DNA from: a virus
Taxonomy: Duplodnaviria > Heunggongvirae > Uroviricota > Caudoviricetes
DNA: 10,678 bases
IMG/VR virus record: IMGVR_UViG_2684623081_000001
Reading direction: 5' to 3' (one strand)
The notes under the pieces were generated by a model. It ran no database searches and was not told where the DNA came from. It was given only the letters and a program-made list of their open reading frames with translations. This document shows, piece by piece, positions 1 to 10,678 of this stretch. The translations under genes and the position numbers were made by a program. Positions within the stretch are counted from its first letter, which is position 1; every line of letters begins with the position of its first letter.

Positions 1-201
1 TTACCCATTGGCGCGGCTTAAGAGCTTATTTTTGAATTCACAATGGTCACGATATAACCATCTTGCTCGCCCGTGGATAACTTTGGCTTTTGGCAGGTCG
101 CCTGACTTAATCCGGTCATAGATGAAGGTTTTACCAAAGCCAGTATCAGCCATGATGAATTTCAAATCAACCAGTGAATCAGGCTGTAGTTCGTGTTGCA
201 T
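1..201 (-). CDS. torI: AlpA/Xis-family excisionase (recombination directionality factor), TorI-like, 66 aa
   Basis: 66-aa ORF whose sequence (MQHELQPDSLVDLKFIMADTGFGKTF...) I recognise as a small AlpA-type HTH protein matching TorI in size and sequence. SD-like GGAG about 9 nt upstream of the ATG at 199-201. Window starts exactly at its stop codon. Confidence 0.65.
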   Translation of the reverse strand: MQHELQPDSLVDLKFIMADTGFGKTFIYDRIKSGDLPKAKVIHGRARWLYRDHCEFKNKLLSRANG

Positions 202-332
202 GAGTGCTATCTCCGAATAGGGAATCGAACCTGCAAATCAGGTAATAAAAATACGCTCTATGACGGCGATGGTAGATCAGGATATTTTAAGAAACTGACA
301 GGCCTCATCGAGTGTGAGGCTGTATGGCTCTA

Positions 333-638
333 TTATTTCACCTCTTGTTGTGACATTGTTGAAAAATGGATACCAGCTCGTTGCTGCCAGATGATCCAAC
401 CGAGAGTCATATCCCATGCCATGTATTCGTTATCGCCGTTTTTTGCTCTCCGACGATCTACTAAGTCACCGAAACGCTTTTCCATGAATAATTCATAGGC
501 TTCGCGTTCATCTGGCTCTACTTCCAGAGATACGAGTGCGATTTCATAAGCACGGCGCTCAATATCGTCTCGAACCTCTAGGCTGCTGATTCGTTCTTTG
601 ATTTCTTTAATCAGTTCTTTATTGGTAAATGTGGTCAT
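333..638 (-). CDS. yfdT: Hypothetical prophage protein, 101 aa
   Basis: Intact ORF whose length and position match yfdT of KplE1 by synteny. Start overlaps the stop of the upstream gene (TAATG). Sequence itself not recognised. Confidence 0.5.
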   Translation of the reverse strand: MTTFTNKELIKEIKERISSLEVRDDIERRAYEIALVSLEVEPDEREAYELFMEKRFGDLVDRRRAKNGDNEYMAWDMTLGWIIWQQRAGIHFSTMSQQEVK

Positions 639-1000
639 TATGCTCCAGCCTCCGGTGCTTTTGGCATTACTGCCCAGTGAGTGATATTGACGTTTTCAAG
701 GTCCCCAACCTGAAATGTCCACTGCCATTCTCCGGTTTCTTTTTGTCCCCAGGTGTACCAGAGAGAACGCCAGCCAATCAGCCAGCCTTCTCCGTTAGCA
801 TCAAATAACAGAACACTTTCATTTGCTGGTGGCAGTTCAGCTGACACTGGTATTATTTTGTTTTCCAGTGCCGCACATTTAGCTTCAAGCGCGTCGAATT
901 TACGTACCAGGTACTCAGCATTTGTTTCGTTCACTTTCAGATCTCGCGGTACACATTTCCCGCGAAGAAACCCTTCCATTTCGAAAACATTCATGCGCAT
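638..1000 (-). CDS. yfdS: Hypothetical prophage protein, 120 aa
   Basis: Intact ORF, length and position consistent with yfdS. Overlaps the 3' end of the upstream yfdR-like gene by 10 nt, suggesting an operon. Confidence 0.5.
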   Translation of the reverse strand: MRMNVFEMEGFLRGKCVPRDLKVNETNAEYLVRKFDALEAKCAALENKIIPVSAELPPANESVLLFDANGEGWLIGWRSLWYTWGQKETGEWQWTFQVGDLENVNITHWAVMPKAPEAGA

Positions 1001-1527
1001 TTGCGTAACTCCGATAAATCGTTAAAACGTTCCATAAACATCCCGTAGGCATGACCCGGTGCCAGTGGAATCACGTTGAACATCTCTGTTGCCGGGATGC
1101 CTTCCAGTACAGGCCAGAAAGAGCCATCATCAAGCCCGAGATCACGGCGTTCGGTTGCCAGCATAATGAGATCGGCATATTTCACTGGCGTGCTCATAAC
1201 AGGAGGTAACCCGTATTTCTCACGGATTACTGCATCTATTTTTTCTTCCATCCGTTTATAGTCAGGAAGAAGGCGTTTCAGTGGTGCGGGGATGTCCTGG
1301 CAATACGCTTCTGTTGCATCATGCATTAATGCTTCAAAAGCAAATTCCTGCGGCACCAGCTGGCTGCAAAGCACCGCATGTTGGGCGACACTGTAGAAGT
1401 GAGAAAGATGACCGGCAAAGCGGCAGATATTTGAAAGGGAAACCGCGATATCGTTAATCACGATGTCGTCTTTATTTATCTTGTCATAATAAAAATGCTT
1501 CCCGGAAAAAGTTTTAATAAATGACAT
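991..1527 (-). CDS. yfdR: HD-domain phosphohydrolase, YfbR-like 5'-deoxynucleotidase, 178 aa
   Basis: His and His-Asp motifs with HD-superfamily spacing (FYSVAQHAV ... LMHDATEAY ... ERRDLGLDD). Start chosen at the internal ATG 1525-1527, which has GGAG 8 nt upstream and gives 178 aa; the ORF track's longer 187-aa start lacks an RBS. Confidence 0.7.
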   Translation of the reverse strand: MSFIKTFSGKHFYYDKINKDDIVINDIAVSLSNICRFAGHLSHFYSVAQHAVLCSQLVPQEFAFEALMHDATEAYCQDIPAPLKRLLPDYKRMEEKIDAVIREKYGLPPVMSTPVKYADLIMLATERRDLGLDDGSFWPVLEGIPATEMFNVIPLAPGHAYGMFMERFNDLSELRKCA

Positions 1528-1620
1528 TTTGTTCTCCACGTATATGCGCTGCACCGCGCTGAGTTTGGGTAAAAGGAAGCCCTCACCATCCGGTGATTAT
1601 TGAGTTAATTACGTTTCCAT

Positions 1621-1642
1621 AAATGCCCCCGCAGGGGCATTT
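1621..1642 (-). terminator. Candidate hairpin between yfdQ and yfdR (9-bp stem AAATGCCCC / GGGGCATTT, 4-nt loop)
   Basis: Perfect inverted repeat read directly from the sequence, about 12 nt downstream of the yfdQ stop on the minus strand. The following tract is only partly U-rich. Confidence 0.3.
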
Positions 1643-1654
1643 GCAGTAATGAAA

Positions 1655-2479
1655 TCAGGCGGTGAAAGTACCAATAAAGGTTTCTACTTTGCTGTCTTTG
1701 AATTTCTCAACAAGCAGATCACGAAATTCGTTAGCCATATCTTCCTGCACCGCTTCCAGCTGAATAATGCGCAGAACCAGTACAGGACGATCGCCAGTGA
1801 TAATGCTGAGGCGTAATTTAAACGGACGTTCTTTCAGACCTTCAAACGGAACGCATTTAAATTCAAATGCCACTGGCATAATGTCTTTGGTCTTCGCTTC
1901 GACAGATTCCATCAGGGAGCGTTTGCCGCTGAAGTCATTATCTTCAAAATCAGCGGTCTGGTTTGCTTCAATCGTGATTTTACGGATTGCCGCAGCCGCT
2001 TTTGTTGCCTGAATGGCGTCACCATTAGCATCAAAGCCCACAAGGTAGTCGGCCCAGTCTTCAATCCATTCTGCCAGTGATTTCTGGGAGTTACGCTCGC
2101 CGTTAACAGACAACAGGGCAGAGAACGGTGCTGTCTTTTTCAGTTTGAGAGTGGCGGTGTTATCTGCGTGACCTGGTTCATCAATAGTACCCAGGTTAAG
2201 CACACTGACGGCACGCATATTATCAGCATCGATAAAGCAGCGGGTGCCTTCATCTGCAAGATCTTTAGAATAACGGGTAAAGTCATCGATGCTGGCAGTG
2301 GAAAGCGCACCACGGAAACGGAAGCGATTTAAATTAAATTTTTCCAGATCATGAATGCGGAAATTCTCAGGCAATGCCACAGCATCGGCACCAATCTTAC
2401 TGATAATTTCATTAACACCCTGAGCAGAAATAAGGGCATGGATTTGATTAATTGCGGTTGCGTCTAAGTTCTGAGACAT
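1655..2479 (-). CDS. yfdQ: Hypothetical prophage protein, 274 aa
   Basis: Long intact ORF with GAGGA 7 nt upstream of the ATG at 2477-2479. Length and position match yfdQ by synteny. Confidence 0.55.
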
Positions 2480-2544
2480 AATAAGTCCTCACTATATTAA
2501 GATATTCAGTGATGAGATAAATAATTAGTTAATTAAGAATGATA

Positions 2545-2907
2545 TTAATGACCTGCTGCGCGGAGTTTTCCGTCAGGCTCACCGGCAAGAGTCAGTAATT
2601 GTCCCTGGTCTTCCTGCAGAATAGTCAGGCGACCACCGCGATTGACATACATCGGCGTTTCGGTGGTGTCTTCTTCGGAAATTTTCCCACGGTTAGTCGG
2701 GCGAACATATGAGAGTTTGTGTTTGATTTTCAGACGGTTCTCATCAAATGGTTCGATTTCCAGGTTGAGTGAGACCTTACCTTTGGTTTTCGTGTTCATC
2801 ACACCGGAAGCGACTTCACTGAGAACTGCGCCGATTTTGGTTTCAAATACGCCGCCGTCCAGCTCCCCGATAAATGCCTGCACATCAGTACTGCGTTCGC
2901 TAGCCAT
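2545..2907 (-). CDS. yfdP: Hypothetical prophage protein, 120 aa; first gene of the leftward block
   Basis: Start placed at the ATG 2905-2907 (MASERSTDV...), which has GAGGAG 7-8 nt upstream; the ORF track's 148-aa upstream start has no RBS. 120 aa matches yfdP. Confidence 0.55.
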   Translation of the reverse strand: MASERSTDVQAFIGELDGGVFETKIGAVLSEVASGVMNTKTKGKVSLNLEIEPFDENRLKIKHKLSYVRPTNRGKISEEDTTETPMYVNRGGRLTILQEDQGQLLTLAGEPDGKLRAAGH

Positions 2908-2993
2908 TTTGCTGCTCCTCATCATAACCGCAATGCGTCGAATGTTTATCAGCTTAACGTTGCGAAGCTTCAGGCAGCGGCATTTTCTCAACT

Positions 2994-3068
2994 GTCAGAC
3001 TCTGACCCGTCAAAATCTGACGCATCAAAATCTGACCCGTCAAAATTTGATGCGTCGAAATCTGGCAA
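2994..3068. repeat. Five tandem 15-bp iteron-like direct repeats (consensus GTCAAAATCTGACCC), each with internal GTCA-N5-TGAC dyad symmetry; degenerate copies continue to about 3145
   Basis: Units at 2994-3008, 3009-3023, 3024-3038, 3039-3053 and 3054-3068 read directly from the sequence. Further CCGTCAG-containing copies at 3084-3101, 3105-3119 and 3128-3145. Confidence 0.8.
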
Positions 3069-3264
3069 AAAATCGGGTTTTCACCCGTCAGAATCTGGCG
3101 GGGATCCGTCAGTAAAATCAAAACATGATCCGTCAGATAAAAAACCTTCTCGTCCGGACGCTTCGCAACCGGACACGCAGACGGATGAACAGGATTTTTT
3201 AACTCGCCATCCTGATGCGGTTGTATTCAGCCCTAAAAAGCGCCAGTGGGGAACGCAGGATGAT

Positions 3265-3633
3265 TTGACCTGCGCACAGTGGCTCTGGAAAAAAATCATC
3301 GCCCTGTACGAGCAGGCCGCCGAATGTGACGGCGAGGTGGTTCGTCCCAAAGAACCGAACTGGACAGCCTGGGCAAACGAAATTCGCCTGATGTGTGTGC
3401 AGGATGGTCGTACTCACAAACAAATCTGCGAGATGTACAGCCGCGTCAGCCGCGATCCGTTCTGGTGCCGTAACGTGCTCAGCCCGTCGAAGCTGCGGGA
3501 AAAATGGGATGAGCTTTCCCTGCGCTTATCGCCGTCCGTCAGCACGTACACAGAAAAACGCGAAGACCCGTACTTCAAAGCCAGTTACGACAATGTGGAC
3601 TACAGCCAGATCCCGGCAGGATTCAGGGGGTGA
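3265..3633 (+). CDS. yfdO: C-terminal fragment of a lambda O-like replication initiator (TTG start as drawn, 122 aa); probably a 5'-truncated gene
   Basis: The frame is open without any ATG/GTG/TTG from the stop at 2770-2772 to 3265 and reads through the iterons as a Ser/Asp/Pro/Lys-rich linker, as expected for an origin embedded in an initiator gene. Length matches yfdO, which I recall being annotated as a defective O-family protein. Confidence 0.55.
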   Translation: MTCAQWLWKKIIALYEQAAECDGEVVRPKEPNWTAWANEIRLMCVQDGRTHKQICEMYSRVSRDPFWCRNVLSPSKLREKWDELSLRLSPSVSTYTEKREDPYFKASYDNVDYSQIPAGFRG

Positions 3634-4124
3634 GCATGAGTCTTTTGAATGACGTTCAGAAATTCATTGAAGCCCATCCGGGCTGTACTTCCGGAGACAT
3701 TGCGGATGCTTTTGCAGGTTACTCACGGCAGCGCGTTCTGCAGTCAGCAAGCAAGTTACGTCAGAGTGGGCGTGTGGCTCACCGTTGTGAAGGAGATACA
3801 CACAGACATTTCCCGCGCCTGACTGAGAGAGCGCAGGATCCGGAACCACAACCAGTTCGTGAAACCAGACCTGTGCGCAATTTCTATGTCGGCACTAACG
3901 ACCCGCGGGTGATTTTGTGCCTGACCCGCCAGGCGGAAGAACTGGAGTCCAGGGGCTTATACCGTCGTGCTGCAACGGTGTGGATGGCGGCATTCCGTGA
4001 AAGCCACTCCCAGCCAGAACGAAACAATTTTCTGGCGCGTCGTGAACGGTGTTTACGGAAAAGCAGTAAGCGGGCTGCATCAGGTGAAGAGTGGTATCTC
4101 TCAGGGAATTACGTGGGGGCTTAA
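3630..4124 (+). CDS. yfdN: Hypothetical prophage protein, 164 aa from GTG 3630 (162 aa from ATG 3636)
   Basis: Intact ORF. AGGGGG lies 6 nt upstream of ATG 3636, so that may be the true start. The GTG start overlaps the yfdO stop (GTGA). Confidence 0.55.
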   Translation: MSMSLLNDVQKFIEAHPGCTSGDIADAFAGYSRQRVLQSASKLRQSGRVAHRCEGDTHRHFPRLTERAQDPEPQPVRETRPVRNFYVGTNDPRVILCLTRQAEELESRGLYRRAATVWMAAFRESHSQPERNNFLARRERCLRKSSKRAASGEEWYLSGNYVGA

Positions 4125-4399
4125 TGAGTAATAAATATTGCCAGGCGCTGGTGGAGCTGCGGAACAAACCAGCCCATGAACTGAAGGAAGTGGGCGATCA
4201 GTGGCGCACGCCGGACAACATTTTCTGGGGAATTAACACCCTGTTTGGCCCGTTTGTTCTGGATCTGTTTACTGATGGTGATAACGCCAAATGTGCCGCG
4301 TATTACACTGCGGAAGACAACGCGCTGGCGCATGACTGGTCAGAACGTCTTGCGGAGCTTAAAGGTGCTGCCTTTGGTAATCCCCCGTACCCGTGGTAA
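4124..4399 (+). pseudogene. yfdM: N-terminal fragment of a phage DNA N6-adenine methyltransferase, truncated just after the catalytic NPPY motif (91 aa)
   Basis: Sequence [10 protein letters not shown]...[27 protein letters not shown]...GNPPYPW followed by a stop. Phage Dam-type enzymes normally continue well beyond NPPY. ATG overlaps the yfdN stop (TAATG). Confidence 0.6.
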
Positions 4400-4448
4400 C
4401 CCCCAGACCGGCACGCCTGCCACCGATCTGGATGATGACTACTTTGAC

Positions 4449-4967
4449 ATGTTGCAGGAGGAGCTTTGCAGCGTTGTGGAGGCCTCCGGTGCCAGCCTGG
4501 AGAAGGGGCGGCATGACCAGCTGCTTACCGCGCTTCGTGCGCTGCTGTTAAGCCGCAAGAATCCGTTTGGCGATATCAAATTGGACGGCACGGTGCAAAA
4601 GGCTCTCGAAAACCTTGGTTTGGGAGAAGCGGCTAAAAGAAATGTAGGGACAGGGGCGAATCAGATACCTGATATGGGTAGTTTTATGCTTTCTGCTTCA
4701 GTTCCTGGATATCAAAAATTGCCATCCGGTTTAATTATTCAATGGGGGCCAATTGATGTTCCGCTGACGTCTCAGGACACAGTAACCTATTTTCCGATTG
4801 CATTTCCGAATAGATGTCTGCGGGTATTTGCGACTCAGGATTACACTCCCGGCAGTGCAAATGTTGGCTATATAGCTTGTGCCGGTTATAACCAGGACCC
4901 GGTGAAATTTATTTCCAGAGCAGGCGTACCCGGTATCGGTGCTTCATTTTTCGCATTAGGGTGTTAA
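4449..4967 (+). pseudogene. yfdL: C-terminal fragment of a phage side tail-fibre protein, 172 aa from an internal ATG
   Basis: Tail-fibre C-terminal-like sequence begins within a few codons of the methyltransferase truncation point. No upstream tail-fibre shaft or baseplate genes. The ORF track's 240-aa version starts inside yfdM in another frame and is an overlap artefact. Confidence 0.55.
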
Positions 4968-4993
4968 TTTCTTTTAACTTTATGGAGTGAAAA

Positions 4994-5434
4994 ATGAATT
5001 ACATATATTCCGCGACTACAAACTCTTTCTATCCCTTGGAGATGAAAGAGGATTACACGCAAGCTGGCTCATGGCCAGATGATGCTGTTGAAGTTGATGA
5101 GCAAGTGTATATTGAGTTTTCCGGATTACCGCCGAAAGGAAAAATCCGTATCGCTGGAGAAAATGGTTTTCCTGCATGGTCTGAAATTCCACCACCAACA
5201 CATGAGGAACAGATTGCTGCAGCCGAACTGAAAAAGCAGCAATTGATTAATCAGGCCAACGATTATATGAACAGTAAACAATGGGCTGGTAAAGCGGCTA
5301 TTGGTCGTCTGAAAGGTGAGGAACTGGCGCAATATAATTTGTGGCTGGATTATCTGGACGCACTGGAGCTGGTCGATACTTCCAGTGCGCCAGATATTGA
5401 ATGGCCTACTCCTCCGGCAGTTCAGGCCAGATGA
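4994..5434 (+). CDS. yfdK: Tail-fibre assembly protein (Tfa family), 146 aa
   Basis: C-terminal DTSSAPDIEWPTPP motif characteristic of lambda Tfa-like chaperones. GGAGTG 6 nt upstream of the ATG. Confidence 0.7.
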   Translation: MNYIYSATTNSFYPLEMKEDYTQAGSWPDDAVEVDEQVYIEFSGLPPKGKIRIAGENGFPAWSEIPPPTHEEQIAAAELKKQQLINQANDYMNSKQWAGKAAIGRLKGEELAQYNLWLDYLDALELVDTSSAPDIEWPTPPAVQAR

Positions 5435-5750
5435 CATCCGGCGCGGTGCTGGTATCTGTTGCCGTCACCGCGTCAATGTAATCCAGCACAGTGTTAAGTC
5501 GGGAGGTCTCTGCCTGCATCAGCTTCCGCCCAGCCTGTAATTTCAGTTGAATCAGACTAATGGAAGCCATTGCAGTATCAATCAGCGACTGGCGCTGTGC
5601 TTCTGCTGCATCTACTGCGACGCTATGCTGTGCCTCGGTATCCGTCACCCATTTCTCACCATCCCATTTATCGTATGGCGTTAATGGGGCGATAGTCGCG
5701 GGACGCATACAAACATAACCCCTGGATGTTATGTGTCTATCGAGAATCAA
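5406..5750 (-). pseudogene. tfaS: Tail-fibre assembly protein fragment (C-terminal half only), convergent with and overlapping yfdK
   Basis: Aligns by eye to the C-terminal half of lambda Tfa (YDKWDGEKWVTDTEAQ ... DTSTAPDVIWPELP). N-terminal half absent; ORF as drawn starts at TTG. Confidence 0.6.
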
Positions 5751-6018
5751 AGTGGAAGTCCTTATGTTAAGTATAAGACAGGAATCACTTATAACGATAA
5801 TCAGTTAGTATATGTATCTATCACTGTTGATGATAATATCAGCACTTGGTTCTGGAGGGGGTTTGTTGTGGGCAATGATGCATTTAAGTTATCGTCTGCA
5901 GATAGAGGAGATATTACAATAAACAACGAATCAGGGCATTTGATAGTCAATACCGCAATTCTATCAGGAGATATAGTCACTCTAAGAGGAGGAGAAATTA
6001 GGTTGGTATTATAGCTTG

Positions 6019-6040
6019 TGCGCGCCATGATTGGCGCGCA
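6019..6040 (-). terminator. GC-rich hairpin (9-bp stem TGCGCGCCA / TGGCGCGCA, loop TGAT) 9 nt downstream of the yfdI stop
   Basis: Perfect inverted repeat read from the sequence, sitting at the 3' end of the gtr operon. No clear U-tract on either strand, so terminator function is uncertain. Confidence 0.35.
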
Positions 6041-6048
6041 ATTTAAAC

Positions 6049-7380
6049 TTAGTGCTTTACATCGCTATTGTCTTGATTTCTTTGAATTATTTTATAAATT
6101 AAAAAAACGACTGTTATGTATAAGCAAAGGTCGAACGAAAAATACATTCCAAATAAATGCTTGCTTAAATCTCTATATCCTTCCCCGAAAAATGACACAT
6201 AAAATTGAGATATTCCAAAAAGAGATACTACAAATAAAGATGCCTTTATTTTATTATTTCTAATAAAAATAGAAGCAATAAAAAATAATAACAATGATAT
6301 AAATCTAATGTTTTTAAATATATTGTCTTTTATGTTAGTAATAGTCGTTAGTATGTTTGATTCTCCATATATTACGTGTAGTTTTTTATATACATGGAAA
6401 TAATTTTCTTTATACTGAGACATCACACCATCATCAAATGGAAGTTTGAAGATGGTGCTTGGTTTGCTAACCAATAAAAAGAGTGCATTCGAAAACGTTT
6501 CATCTTTATGAGATTCGAAACATTCCGTTCCAACTTCTGTTGGGGTTGCGCCAAATGATATGTCGAATTTATTACCCCAGGCATCTAACCCAACACACTT
6601 ATCATCAACATACGATGGCATTTTATACCCGTTGTTTTTCATATAAAGATAACTACCGAAGTATGTTGCATGGTACTTATTTAATTCAACAACACCTTTT
6701 GAATAAGATATTGCAAATATTGACGCAAGCAAGCACACCACGCATATTACAGATTTAATAATTAGTTTGTGTCTATCAAAAAAAATATAATATGAATACA
6801 CTATTAGTGGGGTTAATATAAATTGATTTTTAGCAGTAGATATTATTAGCAACGAAAAAAATAGCAAAAGCATAGATTTATTGTTTTTGCATGTTAATGA
6901 ATACACCAAAAATGGAAGGAAAATTATAACTATTTGCTCTTGATAGAATGATGCAAACATTGACAGTGTTGATGAAGAACACATAAGAAAAGCTAAAATA
7001 AAGAATGTAAATAAAGTTACATACCTTTCTGTTTTTATATATGAAGTAAATATCGCATATAATGAATAAATATATATTACTTTTAGAAATAACGATAACA
7101 CCCTAGCATCAAGATATTCAGTAAAAATGCTAATAAACAGGACGTATGTATACAAAATATAACTATATGAACTTATATACTCATAGCTATCAATTGAATC
7201 AATATGACCTTTCAATTTATACAATAAAGGTAAGTCATATGTAAATGCTGGTATGTCTTCAATTAATGGCTTAATGGCTCTTCCGAAATCAGATGTATTT
7301 AACATCATTATGTTTTTAGATAAGGCGCAAATAATCAAAACAAAAGATATATACAATGATACTTTTATTGCTTTATTCAT
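6049..7380 (-). CDS. yfdI: Polytopic membrane protein, putative serotype-specific O-antigen glucosyltransferase (GtrS-like), 443 aa
   Basis: Third gene of a gtrA-gtrB-gtrX arrangement. Very AT-rich and highly hydrophobic with many predicted transmembrane segments. Start overlaps the yfdH stop (ATGA). Size matches yfdI. Confidence 0.7.
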
Positions 7381-8297
7381 TTTTTGACTCTCTTGATGAT
7401 GTATTTCGGGCGTTTTTTGGTTTCAATGTATGTGCGTCCAATATATTCACCTAATACTCCTATTCCAATCATCTGAATTCCACCTAAAAACAGTATTGAA
7501 ACAAGTAGTGAAGGATATCCCCTAACAGCATTTCCAAATATGATAGTATCTAAAATCATCCACGCCCCATAAATAAATGCTACACTGGCTACCACTAACC
7601 CTATGTATGTCCAGATGCGAAGAGGGAATGTGGAAAAGCTTGTAATACCCTCAAGTGCTAAATTCCAAAGTTTCCATCCATTAAATTTTGTATCTCCAGC
7701 AATTCTTTCCGCTCGCACGTATTCAACAATATCTGTCTTTCCTCCTACCCAGCTCAGAATACCTTTCATGAAAAGGTTTCGTTCTGGCATAAGTTTAATA
7801 TTTTCGACAACATCACGGCTCATCAGCCTGAAATCACCAACATTCTCTTCAATTTTAGGATTGCTTATTTTATTGTGGAGCTTATAGAACCACTCAGCCG
7901 TTTTTCGCTTCAGGCGTCCATCAGTTGAGCGGTCAGATCTTTTAGCAAGAACCATATCAGCACCTGCTTGCCATTTTTCAATAAGATGAGGAATAACCTC
8001 AATCGGGTCTTGCAGGTCAACATCAATTGGGATTATCGCATCCCCGGTTGCATGGTCTAACCCTGCAAACAATGCTGGTTCTTTACCAAAGTTGCGTGTA
8101 AATGACAGCGGAACAACTAGAGGATCTGAAACAGCCAGAGCATTAATGATTGACTCCGTAGCGTCTTTGCTGCCGTCATTTATGAAAACGATTTCCACTT
8201 CATATGACTTCAATTCTTCGAATTCACGTACCGTTTTATAAAAAATTGGTATCGCTTCTTCTTCATTGAAGACAGGAACTACAAGAGATATCTTCAT
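7377..8297 (-). CDS. yfdH: Bactoprenol glucosyltransferase (GT2 family, GtrB-like), 306 aa
   Basis: N-terminal GT2 signature ([26 protein letters not shown]) and C-terminal transmembrane segments. Start overlaps the yfdG stop (ATGA). Confidence 0.85.
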
Positions 8298-8656
8298 TTC
8301 GCATCCCTAAAGACAATGAACTTTGAATAGACGAAACCGCACACCAGGCTGATGGCGGAGAAGGTGACAAGAGTTATCATCGGGGGAAGTGCGCATCTAT
8401 CAGCAGCCCATCCAACAGTAGCACTCAGTGTCCCCATGAACCCAACATATAGCATGTAGCGCATCGTTGTAGTCGATGCCTTGAATGTGAATTTTGCATT
8501 CGCGAAGAAGCTAAAGCTCACAGCCACAACGAAACCTGCGAAGTTTGCAAGAGCTTGGTTTGTATGCGCGACATAGATACAAACACCAAAAACCACCCAG
8601 TGTATAAGGGTGTTCAGCACACCAATAGAGGTGTACTTTGCAAATAGCTTTAACAT
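8294..8656 (-). CDS. yfdG: GtrA-like small membrane protein (bactoprenol-linked glucose flippase), 120 aa
   Basis: 120-aa hydrophobic protein with about four predicted transmembrane segments, first gene of the gtr operon. Confidence 0.8.
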
Positions 8657-8808
8657 TTCTTCTATCAGCTAATAATCAAAGGAATGAAGTCTATCATCCA
8701 AGTCTTAATCGATCGATACTTGCTGTGGTTGATGAGACAAAACTTATACACACAAAGCTTTGCACTGGATTGCAAGACTTTGTGCTATTCGATAGTTGTT
8801 AAGGTCGC

Positions 8809-8871
8809 TCACTCCACCTTCTCATCAAGCCAGTCCGCCCATGAAGTCAGCCCCATACGATATAAGTTGTT
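8809..8871 (-). pseudogene. intS: Probable 3' remnant of the prophage integrase (last ~20 codons), truncated by cassette insertion
   Basis: The minus-strand frame ends at a stop at 8809-8811, about 152 bp upstream of the gtrA start, matching the expected integrase-gtrA spacing. Upstream, the frame runs straight into vector sequence at the SpeI site 8872-8877. Assignment is by synteny only. Confidence 0.4.
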
Positions 8872-8892
8872 ACTAGTGCTTGGATTCTCACC

Positions 8893-8921
8893 AATAAAAA
8901 ACGCCCGGCGGCAACCGAGCG
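8893..8921 (-). terminator. Phage lambda t0 intrinsic terminator, oriented to stop the cat transcript
   Basis: Minus-strand hairpin CGCUCGG-UUGCCG-CCGGGCG followed by UUUUUUAUU. The flanking 79 nt (8893-8971, minus) match my recollection of lambda oop RNA. Confidence 0.85.
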
Positions 8922-8998
8922 TTCTGAACAAATCCAGATGGAGTTCTGAGGTCATTACTGGATCTATCAACAGGAGTCCAAGCGAGCTCGATATCAAA

Positions 8999-9658
8999 TT
9001 ACGCCCCGCCCTGCCACTCATCGCAGTACTGTTGTAATTCATTAAGCATTCTGCCGACATGGAAGCCATCACAAACGGCATGATGAACCTGAATCGCCAG
9101 CGGCATCAGCACCTTGTCGCCTTGCGTATAATATTTGCCCATGGTGAAAACGGGGGCGAAGAAGTTGTCCATATTGGCCACGTTTAAATCAAAACTGGTG
9201 AAACTCACCCAGGGATTGGCTGAGACGAAAAACATATTCTCAATAAACCCTTTAGGGAAATAGGCCAGGTTTTCACCGTAACACGCCACATCTTGCGAAT
9301 ATATGTGTAGAAACTGCCGGAAATCGTCGTGGTATTCGCTCCAGAGCGATGAAAACGTTTCAGTTTGCTCATGGAAAACGGTGTAACAAGGGTGAACACT
9401 ATCCCATATCACCAGCTCACCGTCTTTCATTGCCATACGGAATTCCGGATGAGCATTCATCAGGCGGGCAAGAATGTGAATAAAGGCCGGATAAAACTTG
9501 TGCTTATTTTTCTTTACGGTCTTTAAAAAGGCCGTAATATCCAGCTGAACGGTCTGGTTATAGGTACATTGAGCAACTGACTGAAATGCCTCAAAATGTT
9601 CTTTACGATGCCATTGGGATATATCAACGGTGGTATATCCAGTGATTTTTTTCTCCAT
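8999..9658 (-). CDS. cat: Chloramphenicol acetyltransferase, type I (Tn9/pACYC184-type), 219 aa
   Basis: Full-length sequence recognised ([25 protein letters not shown] ... [28 protein letters not shown]). Confidence 0.97.
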
Positions 9659-9865: not shown

Positions 9866-9925
9866 GATAAATATCTAACACCGTGCGTGTTGACTATTTT
9901 ACCTCTGGCGGTGATAATGGTTGCA
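9866..9925 (+). promoter_or_regulatory. Phage lambda PR promoter with operators OR2 (9876-9892) and OR1 (9900-9916); OR3 truncated at the XhoI site
   Basis: -35 TTGACT at 9890-9895, 17-bp spacer, -10 GATAAT at 9913-9918, expected start at A 9925. Operator sequences TAACACCGTGCGTGTTG and TACCTCTGGCGGTGATA recognised. Confidence 0.92.
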
Positions 9926-9938
9926 TGTACTAGAATTC

Positions 9939-10678
<740 letters not shown>

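Follow-up and report, generated by a model that had tools for sequence, protein, structure and literature searches.

The intS stub upstream of gtrA is almost certainly the left junction of an engineered intC::PR-YFP-cat allele in the E. coli K-12 prophage CPS-53/KplE1

A short minus-strand coding frame is found at positions 8809–8877 of a viral DNA record of 10,678 nucleotides (the window, that is, the whole stretch of DNA analysed here), between a SpeI site and the upstream region of gtrA, and next to a chloramphenicol resistance cassette. Is this frame what remains of the prophage integrase and, if so, can the element still leave the chromosome? Judging from the sequence, 8809–8877 is almost certainly the left junction of an engineered allele that replaces intS. 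The locus is the documented construct 'intC::PR-YFP-cat', which is already known, and not a natural feature. The features of the window are listed below, with the evidence for each.

1–201, minus strand: torI, the retained recombination directionality factor (excisionase) of CPS-53/KplE1; 66-aa ORF, MGY annotation
8294–8656, minus strand: gtrA/yfdG, bactoprenol-linked glucose translocase family; annotated yfdG, Pfam GtrA_DPMS_TM, E=2.6e-13
8657–8808, no strand: native intS-yfdG intergenic region, 152 bp; 100% identity to wild-type K-12
8794–8841, plus strand: lambda-Red homology arm, the standard 'intC' left arm, 48 nt; exact match to primer intC_PtetO1_F3 (PMC9090333)
8809–8841, minus strand: genuine intS 3' remnant, WADWLDEKVE and stop, IntS aa 376–385; alignment and IntS sequence
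8842–8871, no strand: end of a ColE1-type plasmid origin, 30 nt, PCR priming site; plasmid matches, RNAI nearby
8872–8877, no strand: SpeI site ACTAGT, vector module boundary; read directly
8878–8983, minus strand: module consistent with the t0 terminator (lambda oop/cII region); plasmid and lambda-type matches, terminator scan, fold
8984–8989: SacI site GAGCTC
8999–9658, minus strand: cat (chloramphenicol acetyltransferase); ORF, MGY annotation 'type A-1 chloramphenicol O-acetyltransferase'
9890–9918, plus strand: lambda PR promoter driving YFP, TTGACT-17-GATAAT; promoter scan, MRR genotype (PMC2872608)
9962–10678, plus strand: YFP, GFP family, GYG chromophore and Tyr203; PDB sequence matches to GFP/YFP, E around 1e-160

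The genomes of strains MGY (NZ_CP019629) and KLY (NZ_CP008801) were 100% identical to the window over all 10678 bases. Among the matches listed from 5426 complete E. coli genomes, these were the only two with full-length identity and, among the listed best records, also the only two in which the match continued past 8841. Wild-type K-12 genomes showed 100% identity to window positions 1–8841, and none beyond. By these identities, the window seems to come from the MGY or the KLY genome. The source note of the MGY record reads 'P1 of YFP-CAM to MG1655', and published strain histories tie both strains to MRR (PMC5479142, PMC2872608). MRR is MC4100 galK::lambdaPR-CFP intC::lambdaPR-YFP, from Elowitz et al. 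2002 (PMC2872608), and its YFP-Cam allele was P1-transduced into MG1655 to give MGY and into KL16 to give KLY (PMC5479142, PMC2872608). When the Elowitz MRR 'intC' allele, as carried by MGY and KLY, was compared with the window, we found the same cat, lambda PR and YFP, with no detectable difference.

In wild-type genomes, the gene that occupies the position of the stub and continues past 8841 is annotated intS ('prophage integrase IntS'); argW (tRNA-Arg) comes next, 161 bp further on. Therefore, the element is the defective E. coli K-12 prophage CPS-53/KplE1. This bears out the original prediction that a cassette had replaced the integrase, the cassette occupying the window from 8842 on. Both window ends coincide with stop codons, that of torI at 1 and that of YFP at 10678. 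As the window is bounded by these two stops, attR, T1, the right junction, the remaining part of attL and argW all lie outside it, and were read from the MGY record (loci L001 and L006).

The non-native DNA is made up of cloning-vector modules, namely an origin remnant, restriction sites, the segment assigned to lambda t0, cat, lambda PR and YFP; the module names that we use are presumably those of the pZ vectors. Transcription of cat runs towards the stub and gtrA. To the right of cat, GACGTC and CTCGAG sites precede the promoter at 9890–9918, the sequence of which we take to be lambda PR, and GAATTC, a ribosome-binding site and GGTACC lie between this promoter and YFP. The reporter has Gly65, Gly67, Lys69 and the motif LSYQSA (Tyr203), a set that we assume to denote an early YFP variant (Q69K type) and not Venus or Citrine. 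In MGY, RefSeq/PGAP labels this YFP 'hypothetical protein', an artefact of annotating synthetic DNA.

The minus-strand frame 8809–8877 translates as TSNNLYRMGLTSWADWLDEKVE, followed by the stop codon TGA at 8809–8811. With gtrA at 8294–8656 and a gap of 8657–8808, this stop lies 152 bp upstream of gtrA, as had been predicted, and the SpeI site that had been noted at the other end of the frame is indeed present, as ACTAGT at 8872–8877. In the case of the integrase sequence itself, the prediction was too generous, since it had counted about 60 nt of integrase frame and the native part amounts to 33 nt. When the window is aligned with MG1655 and with a cloning plasmid, the junction falls between 8841 and 8842: up to 8841 the frame consists of TGA and the last 10 codons of intS (WADWLDEKVE), with 100% identity to MG1655, whereas K-12 identity stops there and 8842–8871 is vector. 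Over 8657–8871, the stretch singled out by the prediction for comparison with K-12, the window is accordingly identical to K-12 up to 8841 and different from 8842 to 8871.

Could the whole 60-nt frame at 8812–8871 (NNLYRMGLTSWADWLDEKVE) nevertheless be the integrase C-terminus, with the vector starting only at the SpeI site? Between 8877 and its stop at 8809 the frame is uninterrupted, and its last 10 residues do match IntS. However, the C-terminal end of wild-type IntS reads ...MMQWWADWLDEKVE before its stop (also given as ...QWWADWLDEKVE and ...YLDKRREMMQWWADWLDEKVE), and the residues that precede WADWLDEKVE are ...YLDKRREMMQW, not NNLYRMGLTS; at the point where K-12 identity ends, at 8841, IntS continues into REMMQW, and 8842–8871 is an exact plasmid-origin match. 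We therefore give this reading practically no chance, and the alignment with MG1655 and with the plasmid refutes it. Of the peptide that had been proposed as the IntS C-terminus, the WADWLDEKVE half (aa 376–385) stands, and the NNLYRMGLTS half belongs to a plasmid origin.

The origin of the 30 nt at 8842–8871 could be traced. A 30-mer search returned 19 exact plasmid matches, in plasmids of the MOB-suite type 'rep_cluster_2335', and in pKD071 the segment aligns adjoining ACTAG. In this plasmid, the 30-mers from both cassette ends bracket a 796-bp segment that contains RNAI (Rfam RF00106, 97.7 bits); because RNAI lies between the two 30-mers, 8842–8871 represents the terminal 30 nt of a ColE1-type origin. 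We take this origin remnant to be the p15A module of a pZA-type Lutz-Bujard vector, bounded by AvrII and SpeI. When 8842–8998 was compared with plasmids by megablast, the t0 part alone was matched, and the exact order origin-SpeI-t0 was found in no PLSDB plasmid. As read from these matches, NNLYRMGLTS (8842–8871) is in frame with the stub by accident and is vector read-through, not integrase, and on the same grounds the peptide encoded at 8812–8871 is a chimera of 10 vector residues and 10 IntS residues. At this engineered junction, a native reading frame happens to be lengthened by vector sequence, and the locus can serve as an example of such cases.

Full-length IntS has 385 aa, and its Pfam domains are Arm-DNA-bind_3 (2–86), Phage_int_M (93–188) and Phage_integrase (199–365). 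All three domains are in the deleted part, and the stub (aa 376–385) lies outside all of them; by Pfam analysis of full-length IntS, no catalytic or DNA-binding integrase domain is retained in the stub.

We next consider the other side of the cassette, as it determines how much wild-type DNA was removed. In MGY, the YFP stop is followed by an rrnB-T1-like terminator segment, by CCTAGG (AvrII) and by 30 nt from the opposite end of the origin (GATATATTCCGCTTCCTCGCTCACTGACTC), after which native DNA restarts at TGCGGCTGTCAACGATC. In MG1655, the distance from this restart point is 54 bp to the intS ATG, which lies downstream, and 106 bp to the 3' end of argW. The wild-type DNA removed thus amounts to 1179 bp, comprising intS codons 1–375 and the 54 bp upstream of the ATG.

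Lambda-Red primers for placing other cargo at the 'intC' site are printed in PMC9090333, and both junctions agree to the base with the primer arms given there. On the right, the homology part of intC_R corresponds exactly to MGY L001 7642–7691 and ends at the right junction. On the left, the homology of intC_PtetO1_F3 matches 8794–8841 and ends at the left junction; therefore, the 10-codon stub forms the inner portion of a recombineering arm of 48 nt and has no biological meaning of its own. The primer arms and the strain genotypes also indicate, indirectly, that 'intC' is the old name of intS.

These end-points bear on the idea that the stub is a remnant of natural integrase decay and that the cassette was inserted beside an already truncated gene. 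CPS-53 is defective and contains several pseudogenes, which would fit such a history. Against it, MG1655 and hundreds of K-12 genomes have a full-length, 385-aa intS at this place, MGY is a direct derivative of MG1655, and both ends of the deletion are synthetic primer arms. The chance that decay came first is, in our estimate, close to nil, and natural truncation of the integrase is refuted by the full-length intS of the parent MG1655 and by the primer-arm end-points.

Man-made replacement is thus the preferred reading, and none of the observations speaks against this identification of the construct. The anatomy of the junctions suggests how the construct would have been made. The PCR template would have been a pZ-type plasmid with the order SpeI-t0-SacI-cat-AatII-XhoI-lambda PR-EcoRI-RBS-KpnI-YFP-T1-AvrII, and each primer would have combined a chromosomal arm of roughly 48–50 nt with the terminal 30 nt of one end of the plasmid origin, as its annealing site. 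The PCR product would then have been recombined into intS (intC) of CPS-53/KplE1. The Elowitz strain MRR was the donor from which the allele later reached MG1655 (MGY) and KL16 (KLY) by P1 transduction, and 8809–8841 survived only as part of the homology arm.

Related alleles help to delimit what is particular to this one. The W3110 intC::PLtetO1-mcherry-cat allele (PMC9090333) has the same arms and the same deletion end-points as the cassette studied here, but other cargo and other priming sequences, and it lacks the 30-nt origin remnants and the SpeI-t0 module. Keio-type deletions of intS (JW2345 intS::kan; LCB1024, the delta-intS strain of Panis et al.) are likewise loss-of-function alleles of the KplE1 integrase. 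The Keio design is said to keep the start codon, the last 6 codons and the stop, and to leave the upstream attL/PintS region intact. In contrast, the present allele keeps 10 codons and the stop at the 3' end and has additionally lost 54 bp of attL/PintS, and for this reason it would not be simply complementable, if the arm sites matter.

What remains of the recombination module was assessed against the known system. Site-specific recombination of KplE1 is mediated by IntS together with the directionality factor TorI (PMC2951348, PMC3509656), and a 16-nt core, CTGCAGGGGACACCAT, occurs in duplicate, once at each boundary of the element (PMC2951348). The attL site overlaps the intS promoter: five TorI sites precede the −35 box, TTGACA, the −10 box overlaps with P'1, one of the arm-type sites, and TAAA occurs in every P' site (PMC2951348). 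Expression of torI from a plasmid suffices for excision, chromosomal intS being always weakly expressed (PMC2951348), and the attL substrate used for excision in vitro measured 220 bp and reached into the first intS codons (PMC3509656). Excision of wild-type CPS-53 occurs in fewer than 1 per 100,000 cells (PMC3105296).

On the side of what was kept, the torI-like gene that the original prediction had described as retained is torI itself: window 1–201 on the minus strand corresponds to MGY 2477906–2478106, annotated 'response regulator inhibitor TorI'. No Pfam family was found for this 66-aa protein, and its identity comes from the RefSeq annotation. Both 16-bp cores are present in MGY, that of attL at L001 7748–7763 and that of attR at L006 381–396. 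On the attL side, five TorI-site motifs (GTTCG/GTCCG/GATCG) and the −35 box of PintS, with 6 nt of spacer, were also kept. All of these elements, that is, torI, both cores, the TorI-site motifs and the −35 box, are identical to those of the wild-type KplE1/CPS-53 module (argW-attL-intS ... torI-attR).

In contrast, MGY lacks intS codons 1–375 and, with the 54 bp, the −10 box of PintS, the transcription start and three GGGTAAAA motifs, all of which the wild-type module has. In MG1655, these motifs are located at 4768–4775, 4783–4790 and 4805–4812 of locus L002, a 6.6-kb sequence in which 0.27 copies are expected by chance; they lie within 45 bp, between the PintS −10 box and the intS ATG, two of them facing one way and the third the opposite way. 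As all of them contain TAAA and one overlaps the −10 box, in keeping with the description in PMC2951348, the GGGTAAAA motifs are probably the arm-type P' sites of IntS. The attL of MGY is thus not a complete arm, and it is shorter than the 220-bp in vitro substrate.

According to the original prediction, an element with an excisionase gene and no integrase would be locked in place. The RDF gene torI is present, the integrase gene is absent and attL is partial; intS was reportedly found to be required in vivo by Panis in 2007 (JBC). With no recombinase, a partial attL and excision that is already rare in the wild type, one may soundly infer that the prophage, together with its reporter, can no longer be excised by IntS and TorI. 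Because attL is truncated, IntS supplied in trans may not rescue excision either. For users of MGY, KLY, MRR-derived and other 'intC' strains, this means that the reporter lies inside CPS-53/KplE1 and should be immobile.

Residual excision might still be expected if another K-12 tyrosine integrase stood in for IntS or if homologous recombination took place between the two 16-bp cores. The cores, torI and the TorI-site motifs are all intact, and K-12 has other prophage integrases, e.g. intD, intE and intF (PMC2951348, PMC3105296). However, core and arm sites are recognised specifically by the cognate integrase, and the candidate arm sites of attL have been deleted. A 16-bp repeat is, moreover, far too short for efficient RecA recombination, and wild-type CPS-53 remains below 1 excision per 100,000 cells even with IntS. 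We consider that excision by either route is very improbable. A comparably small likelihood is given to a further effect of the deletion, namely that the attL remnant binds TorI as a decoy or that the orphan −35 box forms a new promoter together with vector sequence; either effect could subtly alter Tor regulation or local transcription relative to the parent strain, although the sequence gives no sign of it.

We also examined the segment between cat and the stub, as the prediction had placed the t0 terminator between cat and gtrA and had regarded the intergenic region upstream of gtrA as native. The second statement agrees with the data, 8657–8808 being 100% identical to wild-type K-12. In the case of t0, the matches, the terminator scan and the fold coincide in position. 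The module is a 100% match to cloning plasmids and a 98% match to lambda-type sequence annotated cII; the scan revealed a hairpin with a 12-bp stem and a T-run on the cat strand, at 8925–8898, and the RNA around it folds with −24.9 kcal/mol (z=−2.3). Judged from its sequence, the segment agrees with the lambda t0 (oop) terminator. Our use of the name t0 follows from the Lutz-Bujard pZ vectors, which we understand to carry t0 between SpeI and SacI. We infer that t0 stops cat transcription before it reaches the native upstream region of gtrA/yfdG, which is the first gene downstream of the stub and encodes a product of 120 aa. Within the t0 module of MGY, at 8878–8949 on the plus strand, PGAP calls a pseudogene, a partial 'hypothetical protein', which is an artefact on synthetic DNA; the corresponding DNA carries a lambda cII family annotation in a plasmid match.

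The terminator also matters for a longer reading frame that runs through the junction. On the minus strand, 8809–9081 forms a 90-aa ORF that starts at an out-of-frame ATG inside cat and reads on through t0, SpeI and the origin remnant to end in the tail of IntS. That it encodes a functional fusion peptide has a vanishingly small probability in our view. The ORF does exist and lies on the cat transcript, but it has no Pfam match, is out of frame in cat, joins synthetic parts only and is absent from the PGAP annotation of MGY. It also crosses the t0 hairpin, at 8925–8898, and terminated transcripts would lack its stop codon. Given the missing Pfam match and the terminator hairpin in its path, the ORF is almost certainly meaningless.

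Finally, in other K-12 laboratory strains the prophage stretch, window 1–8841, matched in two pieces, with extra DNA between them. An IS3-family element, with about 1.26 kb of extra DNA, is present in the prophage of C600, RV308, GM4792, NEB Turbo and others, and ET12567 has an ISVsa5-family (IS4-like) transposase within the prophage stretch. In EPI300, the matched prophage place includes trfA and araC, with about 3.3 kb of extra DNA. CPS-53 therefore seems to have received insertions repeatedly, natural as well as engineered ones.
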